64,000 nucleotides of DNA from Ostreococcus lucimarinus (GCA_000092065.1 CP000588.1); one strand, 5' to 3'; shown: positions 3,477 to 21,302, counted from the stretch's first letter. Numbers and translations: made by a program. Notes: generated from the letters alone by a model not told the origin.

Positions 3477-4010
3477 CTAGGCCTTCGCCTTCTTGGCGGA
3501 CTTTTCTTTCTTGTCCTTCTTTTCCTTCTTGGACTTCTTCGGAGTCGCCGTCGCAGAGTCGGTCGCCTTTCGCTTGCCGCCGCCGCCCGCCTGCGGGCCG
3601 ATCTCGGCGATCACCTCTTGCATCATGGCGATATTCTTACGCGGTGCCGTGCCCTTGTCGTAAAATGCCAATCGCTCTTCGACTTGATCCTTCAACTTTT
3701 CGCCGAACAAGGTGGTTTGGAAGTCGCTAAAGCAGTCAATTCTGCTTGCGATGCTACACTTGTTGGCTAAGTATCGAGAAATTCTCCCCTTGTTTCGCGC
3801 GTTCGCCTTGCCGATGAACGTGCTGTGGAAAATCAAACCGTACTTGGGCGTGTTCCCCTTGGTCTTCAGCGCGCGGAAGAGCGCTTTTTCGGCGCCGAGA
3901 ATTTGCACCGTCGACGCCGGGTACTTGGCTAAGTTCGTGAGCGAACCGGCGTGCGAAATCAAACGCGCGGCGATAATGTCACCGATCAACGCGCCCAGGT
4001 TCGGGGCCAC
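3477..4010 (-). CDS. NOP56: Nucleolar protein NOP56 (box C/D snoRNP), exon 2 of 2
   Basis: Reads [90 protein letters not shown], near-identical to NOP56. C-terminal [10 protein letters not shown] tail. Acceptor ...tactggcag|GTGGCC at 4011/4010. Confidence 0.8.
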
Positions 4011-4252
4011 CTGCCAGTACGATAAAACGATAAAAATGGTCAGTGTCTTCGTTCGGGTTGTTTTGATGAAAAATTTCCGCGTCGACGTTGTTCCCCACAG
4101 ACGCGAGTCAGAGTGGTGCATGAATTGTTTCAACAAGGTAATTCAGATCAGGTCTGTGATTGGTGTATCATAATCATCAACCCCACGAACTGCGAGAGAA
4201 TCATTGGCGATTGATCGGTACGAGCGTTCGTCGCGCGCTTCGAAATACTTAC
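4011..4252 (-). other. NOP56: Spliceosomal intron of NOP56 (242 nt, GTAAGT...CAG)
   Basis: ORFs 4148..5122 and 3477..4136 are in different frames. Homology jumps from ...YLNNKMSV to VAPNLGA. Donor ATGAGTGTG|GTAAGT on minus strand at 4253/4252. Confidence 0.7.
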
Positions 4253-5122
4253 CACACTCATCTTGTTGTTCAAGTAGTTGTGAAGACTGGTTCGGTACTC
4301 GGCGAGGGAAATGACGCGCTTGGCGAAGGACTCAATGTTGATCATGTCCACCGGTGAGATGTCTTGACCCATCGACGCTTTGGCTGCCTCGATCACTTCT
4401 TTAGCCTTGTCCTCGTCCCCGGTGATTTCCTTCAACGCCGGCATCGCCTCATCGGTGAGCGTCGCCTTGTCCTTGATCACGAGCGCCAGTCTCGCGTACA
4501 TGTAGTTGTCGTTGACGACTTTGACGAGCTCGGGAAAGTGCCAACCGTACCATTCGCGCACGCGCATGATGAAGGTGTTGATGTCCTTATCGAGCGTGTC
4601 GATCAGCGCGATGGCCTGGATGATCATGTTATCCGATCGGTTCACGTTGAACTTGACCTTGGCGCGAGAGTACGAGTGCGCCAAGCCGAGTTGCGCCTTT
4701 TCGTAGTCGCCACCCTTGAAACCCTTGACAAACTTTGTGAAATACGCGCGAATGCCCCGAATAATCTCACCGACGTGATCGTTGCACACGCACGGAATCT
4801 TCGTCGTCTCCACGATCGAGTTCCCGAGCTTGGAGTCCGCGACGCCGAGCTGAAACTTGGCCTTTTTAGAATCCTTCAACTTTGGCAAGTTTTGCTCTAA
4901 AAAGTTTTGCAAATCCTCCGAGGCCACGCCCTCGGACACGCAATTAATCTGCTCCAGCGCGTTCGCCGCCGACGTAAACGGTTTAAACCCGTGCAATTTC
5001 ACAACCTTCCCGAACTTATCCGCGCTCTGCGTCGTCTCCTGCACCTTCTCCAGCGCCTGTCCCACGACGTCCAAATCCAGCGTCTCGAACAACCCGTACC
5101 CCGACGAGGACTCGAACAGCAC
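4253..5122 (-). CDS. NOP56: Nucleolar protein NOP56, exon 1 of 2
   Basis: Reads MLFESSSGYGLFE...LGLAHSYSRAKVKFNVNRSDNMIIQAIALIDTLDKDINTFIMRVREWYGWHFPELVKVVNDN..., matching the NOP56 (not NOP58) core. Confidence 0.8.
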
Positions 5123-17191: not shown

Positions 17192-17847
17192 TTAGAAGTC
17201 TTCGTCGAGGGAGAACGCGTTCGCGTTGCCACCCCCGATAGAGTTCATGACACCCGCCTTCTGGTATTCGCCGACGCGCTTCTCGAAGAAGTTCGTCTTA
17301 CCTTGAAGAGAGATGAGTTCCATCCAATCAAACGGATTCGTCGTGTTGTACTCCTTGGCCAAGCCCAAAGAGCAGAACAAGTGATCGGCGACGTATTCAA
17401 TGTAGTCGCTCATCATGCCGGCGTTCATGCCCACGAGCGCGCACGGAAGAGAGTCGCACACGAACTCCTTCTCGATTTCAACAGCCTCGGTGACAATCTT
17501 GCGAATGGTTTCTTCGCTCGGCTTGTTGTTCAACATGCTGAACAACAAGCACGCGAAATCGCGGTGCAAACCTTCGTCACGAGAAATGAGCTCGTTGGAG
17601 AAGGTCAAGCCCGGCATCAAGCCACGCTTCTTGAGCCAGTAGATGGAGCAGAAAGAACCAGAGAAGAAGATGCCTTCAATGCACGCGAACGCCAAGAGAC
17701 GCTCGGCAAACGAGTCGCTCGAGTCGATCCACTTCAACGCCCAGTCAGCCTTCTTCTTCACGCACGGGATGGTATCGATGGCACGGAACAGGTGGTCCTT
17801 TTCCACCGGATCCTTGATGTACTGATCGATCAACAAAGAATACATTT
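17192..17847 (-). CDS. RNR2: Ribonucleotide reductase small subunit (R2), exon 4 of 4
   Basis: Reads (E)[13 protein letters not shown]...[38 protein letters not shown]...[17 protein letters not shown]. Acceptor ttcgcag|AAATG at 17848/17847. Confidence 0.85.
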
Positions 17848-17954
17848 CTGCGAACGATGAAGAAAGCGTTTTGAGTCAGTCGGTTTGAATTCGAGAGCGT
17901 TTGCGCGCGCGAGGTGGAAATTCCTTCTCCAATCGCAAGAATCGAGCGCATCTC
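17848..17954 (-). other. RNR2: RNR2 intron 3 (107 nt, GTACGT...CAG, phase 1)
   Basis: IAIENIHS|G-GTACGT donor. The split codon G/AA gives Glu as in R2 (IHSEMYS). Confidence 0.75.
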
Positions 17955-18173
17955 TCGACGTACCGGAGTGAATGTTCTCGATGGCGATTTGGAAGCCATA
18001 GAACGCGCGGGCTTCCGGAATCTGAACCTCGCCCATGAAACGAACGCCGAGGTTTTCGAGCACGATGCCGTCCGAGGCGGCGAAGAACGCAAGCACGTGC
18101 GAGACAAAGTGCTTCTCATCCTTCGTGAGCGTCTCCCAGTGCTTCATGTCGTCCGACAGATCGACTTCCTCCG
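17955..18173 (-). CDS. RNR2: RNR2, exon 3 of 4
   Basis: Reads (A)[69 protein letters not shown]. Confidence 0.8.
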
Positions 18174-18322
18174 CTGTTTGCGCACAAAAGCACGCGCGAT
18201 CGCGTCGATGTACCGTTAGTCACGCGTCCCGTTCGCCCTTCGCTCTCTCGCGCGCCGCGCGATTTCAAACTTTGCGCAGCGTTCGACGTGACGTCACCCC
18301 ACGCGCTCGTTCGCGCACGCAC
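18174..18322 (-). other. RNR2: RNR2 intron 2 (149 nt, GTGCGT...ACAG, phase 1)
   Basis: Reads FWT-G|GTGCGT ... gcttttgtgcgcaaacag|CG GAG. The split codon GCG (Ala) restores the plant R2 sequence FWTAEEVDL. Confidence 0.7.
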
Positions 18323-18396
18323 CGGTCCAGAAAGACGCCTCAGCCTTCTTATACATCTCCCACACCTGCGGGTACTGAATCGGGAACATCGTGAAC
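18323..18396 (-). CDS. RNR2: RNR2, exon 2 of 4
   Basis: Reads (R)[24 protein letters not shown], essentially identical to plant R2 ([25 protein letters not shown]). Confidence 0.75.
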
Positions 18397-18748
18397 CTGC
18401 GAGCGACCGCGAAACGCGCGCGAAACCTCCGTCAGTGTCTTTTTCAACTAAACGACTCGAAAATCATCCACGACGTCATCTTCCCCAACCTCCCACACCA
18501 CCCGCGCCTCGCGCGCGCCGTCGCCCGCGCCGACGCGCGCGTCGAAATCCCTCACGCAGTCTTCGCCCCCCGAACCGCGCCATCGCGCGTCGCGCGCGCG
18601 TCCAGCCCCGCGAAACGATTCCCGGCACCGGCGCGATTTCAAATTCGAACGTTGCGCCCCATCGTTCGCGCGTCCCTCACCGCGCGCGCGCGCGTCCATC
18701 GACGCCGTCGCGCGCGCGCACGCGTCGCGAATATTTTTCTTCACGCAC
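18397..18748 (-). other. RNR2: RNR2 intron 1 (352 nt, GTGCGT...CGCAG, phase 2)
   Basis: Exon 1 ...GAC CAA CG|GTGCGTGAAG. Acceptor gctcgcag|G TTC ACG ATG. The split codon CG/G gives Arg. Confidence 0.6.
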
Positions 18749-18798
18749 CGTTGGTCGTTTTCATCGAGCAAAGGCTCGGCGAGCGGGAGAGGCGACAT
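18749..18798 (-). CDS. RNR2: RNR2, exon 1 of 4 (MSPLPLAEPLLDENDQ + 2 nt)
   Basis: ATG 18796-18798 reads MSPLPLAEPLLDENDQ(R), aligning to Arabidopsis TSO2 N-terminus (..EEPLLTPTPDR|FCMFPI). Total spliced length is 332 aa. Confidence 0.6.
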
Positions 18799-19065
18799 GT
18801 TTTGCGTCGGCGGGCGTGGAGTAATGACGCGCGTGCCGGCCTGACGCGCGTGCCGGCCTCGTGGTCGCGCTCTCGGCGGACGCGCGGAAAATCACCCGCG
18901 CGTCCGCCGAGACGCATTTAAGATACTTTGAGCGCCATCATCGCTACTTATGAGTCACGAACGGTGCTTTCGAGACTCGGTCAAAAATCACACGCGTGCG
19001 GCGCTTCAAACGTTTTTCGGCCTCGACGCGCCAACGCCGCGCGCGTCACACATCGTCTCGAAGCC

Positions 19066-19104
19066 ATGGGAAAGGTCCACGGTTCGCTCGCTCGCGCTGG
19101 TAAA
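19066..19104 (+). CDS. RPS30: 40S ribosomal protein eS30, exon 1 (MGKVHGSLARAGK)
   Basis: Reads ATG GGA AAG GTC CAC GGT TCG CTC GCT CGC GCT GGT AAA|GTACGT. Confidence 0.8.
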
Positions 19105-19455
19105 GTACGTACACGATATTCTTCTCGATCGATGCGGCGCGCGCGGCGCGCGTTCGGCGCGGCGCGGCGCGCGCGGCGTGGGATCGTCGCGTTAGGGCTT
19201 CGCACGGCGGCGATCGACGACGCGCGCGGCGATCGACGCGCGGCGTCGCTTCGAACGCGCGAACGCGGGGAGTCGCGATGAGATGGCGCGATGGATGGGG
19301 TCGGACATCGCGCGCGGGCGGGAACGGGGCGCGAGATGCGTCGGCGTGGGGGCGCGGGGCGACGGGGCGATCCATGGATGATGGCGGGCGAGGGACTAGG
19401 GCTGAGACGCGCGCGAACGCGAGACTGACGAAGCGATTTCTTACGCGTTGATCAG
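19105..19455 (+). other. RPS30: RPS30 intron (351 nt, GTACGT...GATCAG)
   Basis: Unspliced reading continues as junk (..VRTRYSSRS). Splicing joins ..AGK to [15 protein letters not shown]. Confidence 0.8.
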
Positions 19456-19605
19456 GTTCGTGGTCAAACCCCGAAGGTCGCGAAACAAGAAAAGAAGAAG
19501 CAGCCCAAGGGCCGCGCGTTCCAACGCATCAAGTACAACCGTCGTTTCGTGAACGTCGTCGTGGGCATTGGCAAGAAGCGCTCGCCGAACTCTAACCAAG
19601 CGTAA
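19456..19605 (+). CDS. RPS30: 40S ribosomal protein eS30, exon 2
   Basis: Reads [49 protein letters not shown], matching animal eS30/FAU C-terminus ([35 protein letters not shown]). Total 62 aa. Confidence 0.85.
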
Positions 19606-19616
19606 ACGACGAGAAG

Positions 19617-20198
19617 ATGATTAGTGTTTTCGGAAATCGTTTGAAAGGTGCGACGGCGGTGCGGTCGTTCGCTGTTAATAGTTTGGAGAGTATGAGAGGA
19701 TGTTTGATGAGTAGTGAGTTAGGCAGCCAGTGGGCGCCGGCGACGCGCTGGGCGAAGTCGATTGTTTCGACGACATCCGTCGCCGCCGGAGACGCCGCTG
19801 AGGGTCGATCGAGCCGACGTTCGCTGGACTTGAATCAAAAGTCTGGTGAAATCAAACCCGAATTAGTGAAAAAGTATCTGAGTGAGACCAACATGTCGAG
19901 GGGAGACGTGAACAAGCGCGCGCTCGCCGAAGAGCGAGCCGCGTTTGCGCGCGACGAACACGACACGGGGTCGAGCGAAGTACAAATCGCCAACTTGACC
20001 ATGCGCATTAAGCTCATGACGGAACATTTGCGTGAACATGGAAAGGACACGCACAGCCGTCACGGGCTCATGGCCATGCTCGAGCGCCGGAAGAAGCTTT
20101 TAAAGTACCTCCGACGCACCGACGGCGATAGGTACGCGGATGTCATTTTACGACTCGGTTTGAAGGATCGATCTTTCGTAGACGACAAGTACGCTTAA
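19617..20198 (+). CDS. Organellar (bacterial-type) ribosomal protein uS15 with ~90-aa N-terminal presequence
   Basis: C-terminal reads GSSEVQIANLTMRIKLMTEHLREHGKDTHSRHGLMAMLERRKKLLKYLRRTDGDRYADVILRLGL, the rpsO/S15 signature. ATG 19617 lies only 11 nt after the RPS30 stop. The N-terminal 90 aa are AT-richer, so the start could be an internal Met (e.g. MSRGDVNK). Confidence 0.65.
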   Translation: MISVFGNRLKGATAVRSFAVNSLESMRGCLMSSELGSQWAPATRWAKSIVSTTSVAAGDAAEGRSSRRSLDLNQKSGEIKPELVKKYLSETNMSRGDVNKRALAEERAAFARDEHDTGSSEVQIANLTMRIKLMTEHLREHGKDTHSRHGLMAMLERRKKLLKYLRRTDGDRYADVILRLGLKDRSFVDDKYA

Positions 20199-20345
20199 TA
20201 TTTTGTGATACGAGTCTTCAACTGCGTTTACACCGCGTGCCCGTCTCCGCCTCCCGAACGACGCGACGACGTAGTCGCATTTTTTTCGTCCGGGCTCGAG
20301 CGCCAAAAAGCCGTTTGCCGTTCCTCACACGCCACCGCGCGCACC

Positions 20346-21302
20346 ATGCTCGCATCGCGTCTCGCCAACGCCGCGCGACGCGCCACCGCGAGAACCGCGC
20401 GCGCGTCTTCATCCGCGCCCGCGTCCGCACCGCTGCGCCGCGCGCACGCGCTCGCGACGCGTCGTCGGTCGTCCCGCTCGAGCGCTTCGCGAAGCGCGTC
20501 TTCATCGAACGATGCCGACGCCGAAGCGCGCTCGCGCGACGATTGGATCGTCGTCGGGTGCGATTCCGACGCCCACGGCGCGCTGTGCGTGATCTCGGGC
20601 GCGTCCGTGGGCTCGGTGCGAAGCGTGAACGTTCGGGACAATCCCACGAGCACGGTGACGGTGAACGGACGCGCGCGACTGCGACTGGACCCGGACGCCA
20701 TGCGCGGCGCGGTGCGCGCGCTGGGCGTGCCCAAAGGCACGAGGGTGTATTTGGAAGAGGGCGGGGTCGAGTTCGGGTTCAGCGCGCAGACGGCGTTCGT
20801 GCAAGGGTATAATTTCGGGCTGTGGCGAGGCGTGCTCGCGGCGGAGGAATTCGAAGTGCGCGTGGTGAAGCCGCAGGCGTGGAAAGCGGCGATGGGGTTG
20901 AAGTTCAAGGGAAGCACGAAGGATGATTCGATCGCGATGGCGAAGATGCTTTTTCCCGAGATCGCCGGCGAGCTGAAGCGGAAGAAGGATCACGGGAGAG
21001 CCGAGTCGTTGCTCATCGCCGCGTACGGGCACGTCGCAGACGGGGGCGCGGCGGCGAAAGAGGAAGACGAACTGTGTTCTCGCGTACGCGCCGCGCTCGC
21101 CGACCGAGGCGTCGTCGACCGCGAAGAGGGCGCGGCGATGCCGTACTTTGGGCCGTATTTCGGCATGACTGGGGAAGAATTGAGGAAAGAACTCAAAGCG
21201 CGCGGGTGCAAAGTCGGCGGCAACAAAGCCGACTTGATTTTACGTCTCGAGTCGAGCGACGCGGAGATCAACGAGCGCGAATCCAAGAGCGCCGCGGCGT
21301 AG
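20346..21302 (+). CDS. RuvC/YqgF-like RNase-H-fold nuclease (Holliday-junction-resolvase-like) with C-terminal SAP domain and organellar transit peptide
   Basis: Reads MLASRLANAARRATARTARASSS... (transit-like). WIVVGCDSDAHGALCVISGA (RuvC motif I-like). RVYLEEGGVEFG (Glu). ESLLIAAYGH. C-terminus GMTGEELRKELKARGCKVGGNKADLILRLES is a SAP motif. ATG 20346 is in frame with ORF 20205. Confidence 0.5.
   Translation: MLASRLANAARRATARTARASSSAPASAPLRRAHALATRRRSSRSSASRSASSSNDADAEARSRDDWIVVGCDSDAHGALCVISGASVGSVRSVNVRDNPTSTVTVNGRARLRLDPDAMRGAVRALGVPKGTRVYLEEGGVEFGFSAQTAFVQGYNFGLWRGVLAAEEFEVRVVKPQAWKAAMGLKFKGSTKDDSIAMAKMLFPEIAGELKRKKDHGRAESLLIAAYGHVADGGAAAKEEDELCSRVRAALADRGVVDREEGAAMPYFGPYFGMTGEELRKELKARGCKVGGNKADLILRLESSDAEINERESKSAAA

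Follow-up and report, generated by a model that had tools for sequence, protein, structure and literature searches.

eS30 and a mitochondrial-type S15 are probably expressed from one dicistronic nuclear mRNA in Ostreococcus lucimarinus and related green algae

We analyzed a 64,000-nucleotide stretch of DNA from Ostreococcus lucimarinus (GCA_000092065.1, CP000588.1; hereafter the window), in which an open reading frame (ORF) for an organellar-type ribosomal protein S15 begins 11 nt past the stop codon of the gene encoding the cytosolic ribosomal protein eS30, on the same strand. Our analysis indicates that the functional unit of the two genes is probably a dicistronic nuclear mRNA with eS30 as ORF 1 and S15, which we read as the precursor of mitochondrial uS15m, as ORF 2. 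The two ORFs would form one nuclear transcription unit yielding a spliced, polyadenylated mRNA of ~1 kb, composed of a short 5' untranslated region (UTR), the 62 codons of eS30, the 11-nt spacer, the 193-codon uS15m precursor and a short 3' UTR. We infer the presence of both ORFs on a single molecule in vivo in this species.

RNA contigs and conservation of the eS30-S15 linkage

Contigs in which the eS30 introns have been removed must come from RNA. About 21 such assembled contigs, from at least eight lineages, contain the spliced eS30 followed by a complete S15 ORF. They include L014, L046, L057, L080, L082 and L093, L110-L112 (these three from independent SRA runs), and the Bathycoccus-like contigs L114-L123, all ten of which (10/10) carry spliced eS30 and S15. 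L014, an RNA-derived Logan contig (SRR28369075) with the window's own sequence, links position 19104 directly to 19456. Among the contigs examined, every spliced contig reaching past the eS30 stop runs through the whole S15 ORF, and none (0/21) terminates between eS30 and S15. The spacer between the two ORFs is retained in the RNA contigs.

The ends of these contigs were also informative. A terminal poly(A) was found ~40-135 nt past the S15 stop in L057, L093, L110 and L112. Spliced contigs of several related lineages start 18-40 nt before the eS30 ATG, and four independent Bathycoccus-like contigs begin at -27 to -30 relative to this ATG, the contig end being only a proxy for the transcription start site (TSS). 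The contig dimensions are as expected for a ~1-kb dicistronic mRNA. A predicted peptide of 274 aa from cultured Ostreococcus sp. RCC789 (P0288, MMETSP0932) consists of the spliced eS30, a short frameshifted stretch and the S15 precursor. A search for the exact spliced exon-exon junction in metagenome contigs gave no match. The contigs show that eS30-containing spliced RNA extends through S15, and other S15-encoding RNAs may exist beside it. An earlier note on this sequence had offered two alternatives, co-transcription of the pair or initiation of S15 at an internal Met; the spliced contigs from at least eight lineages, poly(A) at the end of four of these contigs, and the P0288 peptide favor the former.

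The linkage itself is widely conserved. An S15 alignment used to scan metagenome and metatranscriptome contigs picked out 80 loci. Combining the scan with the loci already gathered, we found eS30 directly upstream of S15 on the same strand in 101 public loci, representing 45 distinct S15 proteins; the RNA contigs L109-L112, from one further lineage, were looked at separately from these. The linkage is present in Ostreococcus, Bathycoccus, Micromonas-like and Pyramimonas-like lineages and in the further lineage (L110-L112). The metatranscriptome lineage of L093 clusters with Pyramimonas sp. CCMP2087, a member of the class Pyramimonadophyceae.

Among Ostreococcus clades, the spacer measures 9-15 nt in four and 30 nt in two more. 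It is 51-57 nt in Bathycoccus (in Bathycoccus prasinos the S15 ORF begins 53 nt past eS30), 35-56 nt in Micromonas-like and other lineages, and 60 nt in the lineage of L110-L112. In lineages with an intron in the S15 presequence, the true spacer is 49-56 nt. In Ostreococcus tauri, where the pair is annotated as two genes, the 15-nt spacer is the smallest gap between coding sequences (CDSs) at the locus, the other gaps being 61-310 nt. A gap of 9-60 nt is found again in each related lineage examined, so chance does not account for the tight spacing. The position of the eS30 intron varies by genus, lying after codon 13, 20 or 39, or after both 13 and 39; therefore, the linkage has outlasted remodelling of the gene.

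Within 2.5 kb downstream of eS30, no S15 was found in Chlorella variabilis or Tetrabaena socialis. None follows eS30 on a Prasinoderma-like contig, but only ~150 nt of downstream sequence is present there. The S15 mRNA contig L113 has a 262-nt leader without eS30. Judged from the sequences collected, the eS30-S15 linkage appears restricted to Mamiellophyceae, Pyramimonadophyceae and one further lineage.

Structure of the locus and identity of the two proteins

The coordinates of eS30 and S15 given in the earlier note, and the 11-nt gap between TAA 19603-19605 and ATG 19617, proved exact. The features of the locus are as follows.

18390..19065, plus strand: presumed shared promoter and short 5' UTR of the eS30-S15 unit
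19066..19104, plus strand: eS30 exon 1, starting with ATG 19066, codons 1-13, MGKVHGSLARAGK; splice seen in RNA contig L014
19105..19455, plus strand: eS30 intron, GT..AG, 351 nt, GC 0.71
19456..19605, plus strand: eS30 exon 2, codons 14-62 and the stop TAA 19603-19605
19606..19616, plus strand: inter-ORF spacer, ACGACGAGAAG, 11 nt, without ATG
19617..19850, plus strand: N-terminal presequence and variable region of uS15m, codons 1-78
19851..20198, plus strand: conserved body of uS15m (IKPELVKKYL... plus the Pfam S15 domain, residues 106-183) and TAA stop
20199..20345, plus strand: presumed dicistronic 3' UTR, placed from poly(A) positions in related contigs

The two members of the pair are conserved protein families encoded by colinear, non-overlapping ORFs on the same strand. 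The eS30 product has 62 aa and is identical to XP_001419064.1, the annotated cytosolic S30 of O. lucimarinus CCE9901. Its residues 3-60 match positions 1-58 of the 58-position Pfam profile PF04758 (Ribosomal_S30) with E=1e-30. The match is thus full length for the family, and the mature protein begins (M)GKVHGSLARAGK.

The S15 ORF (19617-20198) encodes 193 aa, of which residues 106-183 match Pfam PF00312 (Ribosomal_S15) with E=3.8e-29. The top matches among solved structures are uS15m chains of plant mitoribosomes, 9evs_N (2.9e-21) and 6xyw_Bn/At1g15810 (6.8e-21), followed by other uS15m chains from Chlamydomonas (7pkq_o, 3e-16) and yeast (4e-16), whereas chloroplast S15 reached just 1e-9. The alignment to the solved uS15m chains starts at residue 80 and so takes in the IKPELVKKYL segment, which bacterial S15 lacks. 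Close homologues of the window S15 are found in oomycetes, which have no plastid. Because of the best structure matches and these oomycete homologues, we read the S15 ORF as a mitochondrial uS15m precursor, its localization being predicted. The organellar assignment made earlier is thus borne out and, by the comparison with solved structures, narrowed to the mitochondrial type. Counter to this label, the automatic UniProt name for the Bathycoccus orthologue is uS15c.

The N-terminus of S15 is basic, its first acidic residue being E24, and the N-terminal codons look like an organelle presequence. An ATG-initiated presequence right after eS30 is kept in every lineage; the start is of the form M-x-x-x-x-R/K-rich in all of them, and an MxxVFGxRL start is conserved. 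Over the N-terminal 92 codons, the ratio of nonsynonymous to synonymous substitution rates (dN/dS) is ~0.3 from codon 2 on when the window is compared with O. tauri and other Ostreococcus (three clades). By this measure, the presequence is protein-coding sequence that purifying selection preserves from the first codon onward. Initiation of S15 at an internal Met (MSRGD, ~19890), the other alternative of the earlier note, is therefore not supported. The earlier remark that the presequence is richer in AT was true, but the difference is mild: GC is 0.496 in codons 1-41, 0.549 in codons 42-92 and 0.564 in the S15 domain, compared with 0.626 for the whole window. As a separate observation, synonymous divergence (dS) of O. 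lucimarinus from O. tauri is unusually low over the first 30 codons of S15 (19617-19706 versus L013 3001-3090), at 0.14 versus 0.7-0.8 elsewhere; this result, from a small sample, was not reproduced against two other clades.

The intergenic region 18390..19065, ~680 bp, is shared with a divergent gene for the small subunit of ribonucleotide reductase (RNR), which contains introns and lies at 17192-18389 on the minus strand. On the other side, a gene at 20346-21302 on the plus strand begins with ATG 20346, 147 nt past the S15 stop. It encodes a MOC1 homologue (PDB 6is9_A, E=6e-27), MOC1 being the Holliday-junction resolvase of chloroplasts, and a SAP domain lies at the C-terminus of the encoded protein. 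This MOC1-like neighbor is also kept in O. tauri and Bathycoccus. The order peptidase M14, RNR, eS30, S15 and MOC1-like gene is syntenic across Ostreococcus and Bathycoccus.

Annotation of the pair is uneven. Eight recent assemblies of Bathycoccus prasinos (GCA_9641994xx-9641996xx; L015-L022, ~3598-4254) lack a gene call for the S15 ORF, whereas the original Bathycoccus reference annotates it as XP_007513682.1. The exact O. lucimarinus S15 protein carries the name S15 of Ostreococcus 'lucimarinus' in the protein collection, where it has no NCBI source. The fused P0288 places eS30 and S15 proteins in one 90%-identity cluster (the P0014 cluster). Annotation pipelines that allow one ORF per transcript drop one of the two partners.

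Translation of ORF 2 and alternative explanations

On the dicistronic mRNA, the majority of scanning 40S subunits would initiate at the eS30 AUG, and a minority would bypass it and initiate at the next AUG, which is the start of uS15m. Such leaky scanning would be aided by the short leader, and some reinitiation after the short first ORF is possible alongside it. One abundant mRNA would then yield much eS30 and little uS15m, the latter being imported into mitochondria. We regard leaky scanning as the main route to S15 as less certain than the dicistronic mRNA itself.

Reading on from the eS30 ATG, 18 of 19 lineages have no other ATG in any frame until that of S15; the remaining lineage has a single one, in frame, 11 codons ahead of the eS30 stop. 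For the spacers alone, the absence of ATG has a combined P of ~0.02 over seven deep lineages, which is modest support. Among His, Asn, Asp and Tyr codons, eS30 uses no NAT and 6-7 NAC in all 19 lineages (19/19). The bias is much weaker in S15, which has 9 NAT versus 18 NAC in the window and a varying mixture elsewhere. This contrast in codon usage would be expected if ORF 1 were translated heavily and ORF 2 lightly. Together with purifying selection, which acts on both ORFs, it lends indirect support to translation of the two proteins from a shared mRNA.

Several points weigh against a dicistronic mRNA translated by leaky scanning. All RNA evidence consists of short-read assemblies, which are able to merge overlapping transcripts. 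L014 and L046 continue into adjacent genes, L093 starts in the 3' end of a calmodulin gene, and L064 and L109 are probably chimeras joined at a conserved eS30 k-mer. The absence of ATG inside the eS30 CDS is confounded by the exclusive use of C-ending codons, with P=0.06-0.58 per lineage under a synonymous-resampling null, and we rejected it as independent evidence. Furthermore, the eS30 start context is strong: position +4 is G throughout, and position -3 is a purine in all but one of the 19 lineages. The S15 start has a purine at -3 in nearly all lineages, and the ORF 1 context is not weaker than that of ORF 2 by the -3/+4 rule alone. A cytosolic and a mitochondrial ribosomal protein are needed in very unequal amounts, and a strong eS30 start is compatible with this; such a start also leaves room for a contribution from reinitiation.

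Sequence motifs in the spacer and introns must also be considered. The hexamer GGCCCA, the reverse complement of the site II sequence TGGGCC, lies 10-12 nt past the eS30 stop in several Micromonas-like lineages (L060 2846, L062 2562, L067 2532, L058 2534, L066 1744) and is rare elsewhere in those loci. A telo-box-like motif (TTAGGG/TAGGGTT or AACCCTA) occurs as nearly the sole copy per ~6-kb locus, always in an intron of the eS30-S15 unit. In Ostreococcus and some Micromonas-like lineages the intron concerned belongs to eS30, whereas in other lineages it is that of the S15 presequence; the sites are 19192-19197 in the window (TTAGGG, eS30 intron), L013 2597 and 2787, L029 2577/2786, L060 2702, L081 1966, L062 2791 and L066 1973. 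The motif is absent from the Bathycoccus loci. GGCCCA and the telomere-repeat-like motifs are similar to two elements of plant ribosomal-protein genes, site II and the telo-box. They could mark an internal promoter, which is a further point against the dicistronic mRNA, but they could equally be enhancers of a shared promoter.

Of the two suspected chimeras, L064 encodes ubiquitin (1-154) and L109 a FUBI-like ubiquitin-like domain (28-240), each in frame before eS30. Because L064 matches the genomic locus L066 except in the first 12 nt of eS30, and the DNA upstream there contains no ubiquitin exon, L064 is probably an assembly chimera with a ubiquitin-eS30 fusion gene from elsewhere. Ubiquitin-eS30 or ubiquitin-like-eS30 first ORFs at this locus are probably not real; the two contigs would represent assembly chimeras or paralogues.

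An internal promoter would make the pair two overlapping monocistronic units, with the promoter and TSS of S15 inside eS30 (in its intron or exon 2), S15 protein made from the resulting shorter mRNA, and an eS30 message that overlaps S15 or reads through it. Mamiellophyceae genomes are extremely compact, and O. tauri annotates two separate genes. The conserved position of GGCCCA and the confinement of telo-box-like motifs to introns of the unit are in line with such a promoter, overlapping RNAs would be merged into a single contig by short-read assembly, and eS30 exon 2, which contains no ATG, would provide a clean 5' UTR for a transcript starting there. However, the ATG-free path covers exon 1 as well, and 21/21 spliced eS30 contigs continue through S15. 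The contigs that start in the intron, L011 and L088, carry several upstream ATGs and look like pre-mRNA or DNA. Because a spacer of 9-15 nt is too short to hold a cleavage and poly(A) signal for eS30, some or all of S15 must in any case be present on the abundant eS30 mRNA. We consider a nested S15 promoter unlikely, but it is the serious competitor of the dicistronic mRNA.

A second alternative accepts the dicistronic mRNA but replaces leaky scanning with termination-coupled reinitiation, in which S15 translation follows that of the 62 eS30 codons. Points in its favor are the short ORF 1, the 9-15-nt spacer of most Ostreococcus clades and an eS30 stop that is TAA in 45/45 distinct loci. The strong ORF 1 start context disfavors leakiness, and avoidance of ATG near the stop would fit reinitiation as well, by an argument from PMC11892635. 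However, in-vivo mutagenesis in another green alga showed that ORF 2 output is inverse to the Kozak strength of ORF 1 (PMC11892635), a result at odds with reinitiation as the principal route. The length and sequence of the eS30-S15 spacer also vary freely, and no junction structure or motif is common to all lineages: the fold z-score is -0.06, which is not significant, and an Rfam search of the junction gave no match above chance. Reinitiation as the main route thus seems improbable to us, about as much so as a nested promoter. An internal ribosome entry site or another structured element at the junction was rejected on the same fold and Rfam results.

A single fusion polypeptide, arising by stop-codon readthrough, frameshifting or splicing of eS30 exon 1 onto S15, was rejected as highly implausible: AG directly precedes the S15 ATG in the window, exon 1 ends in phase 0 and one database peptide (P0288) is fused, but spacer lengths cover all three residues modulo 3 across lineages, the AG is missing in O. 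tauri (GCC before ATG), eS30 introns do not sit at the same position in all genera, the spacer is present in the RNA contigs, and the P0288 frameshift is missing from the genomic loci of that lineage (L052/L053).

The dicistronic mRNA therefore remains our preferred explanation. With slightly less than even confidence, we further suggest that it may be an ancient dicistron, older than the split between Mamiellophyceae and Pyramimonadophyceae, that ties uS15m to a fixed small fraction of eS30 mRNA translation. In this tentative extension, uS15m would be an early-binding protein of the mitoribosomal small subunit and the eS30 mRNA would be among the most abundant of the cell. Leaky scanning past a strong AUG would set the ratio of the two products and so couple mitochondrial to cytosolic ribosome production, and the message would be the first RNA-supported conserved polycistronic mRNA in prasinophyte picoplankton.

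A dicistronic eS30-uS15m mRNA would extend nuclear polycistronic expression to ecologically dominant marine picoalgae (Ostreococcus, Bathycoccus and Micromonas) and to a core housekeeping ribosomal-protein mRNA. It would suggest a simple way of tying production of the mitoribosome to that of the cytosolic ribosome, and would offer a natural test of how far leaky scanning goes past a strong start codon. The model is directly testable in O. tauri, which can be transformed by homologous recombination.

Comparison with known systems

In animals, eS30 is made from FAU as a FUBI-eS30 fusion, and like other ubiquitin-ribosomal-protein fusions this is a single ORF cleaved after translation, with eS30 as the downstream part. 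The algal pair resembles FAU in that a very small eS30 would be co-expressed with a second product from one mRNA, but here eS30 occupies the first of two separate ORFs. In caliciviruses and influenza B, termination-reinitiation cassettes likewise have a stop codon and the next start a few nucleotides apart, with the second ORF produced at a low ratio. These viral cassettes require a conserved upstream motif complementary to 18S rRNA, whereas no conserved element or structure was found at the eS30-S15 junction by folding or in Rfam.

Within the Viridiplantae, CDC26-TTM3 is cited in PMC11892635 as a conserved bicistronic transcript of land plants and algae. As described there, it shares with the proposed eS30-S15 mRNA a conserved two-ORF organization, a short upstream ORF and downstream translation by scanning. 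The encoded proteins are unrelated, and CDC26-TTM3 is conserved in land plants, whereas eS30-S15 is apparently found only in certain algae.

The closest parallels are the polycistronic nuclear mRNAs of the green algae Chlamydomonas, Chromochloris and Auxenochlorella (Gallaher et al. 2021, PMC7896298; Duenas et al. 2025, PMC11892635). Examples include REX1-S/REX1-B, TOM22 and OST4, with inter-ORF distances down to 14 nt (REX1) (PMC7896298, PMC11892635). The bicistronic loci of Auxenochlorella and Chlamydomonas have short 5' UTRs and are depleted of AUG before ORF 2, and leaky scanning is experimentally supported there (PMC7896298, PMC11892635). Earlier work had inferred for O. lucimarinus and M. 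pusilla only that orthologues of Chlamydomonas/Chromochloris loci are colinear (PMC7896298, PMC11892635). The eS30/S15 pair is not mentioned in the main texts of PMC7896298 and PMC11892635 or in the supplements of the 2025 paper, and other literature searches likewise returned no report of it.

The eS30-S15 locus shares with these green-algal loci the colinear ORFs, a small ORF 1, a very short inter-ORF distance, a short 5' UTR and few or no AUGs before ORF 2. Colinearity kept over long evolutionary distances, frequent mitochondrial products and an often unannotated ORF are further common traits. The known loci produce capped, polyadenylated mRNAs, whereas the eS30-S15 message is known here from short-read assemblies. 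A weaker Kozak-like context at ORF 1 than at ORF 2 is a published trend and not a strict requirement (PMC11892635); the ORF 1 starts of the known loci are weak, whereas ORF 1 of eS30-S15 encodes a highly expressed cytosolic ribosomal protein and has a strong start. The eS30-S15 pair also differs in its distribution, occurring in prasinophyte lineages and being unlinked in Chlorella and Tetrabaena. We therefore regard eS30-uS15m as a new example of an established green-algal polycistronic class and not as a new kind of biology. What sets it apart within this class is the pairing of a cytosolic with a mitochondrial ribosomal protein, the strong ORF 1 start, and its conservation across Mamiellophyceae into Pyramimonadophyceae.

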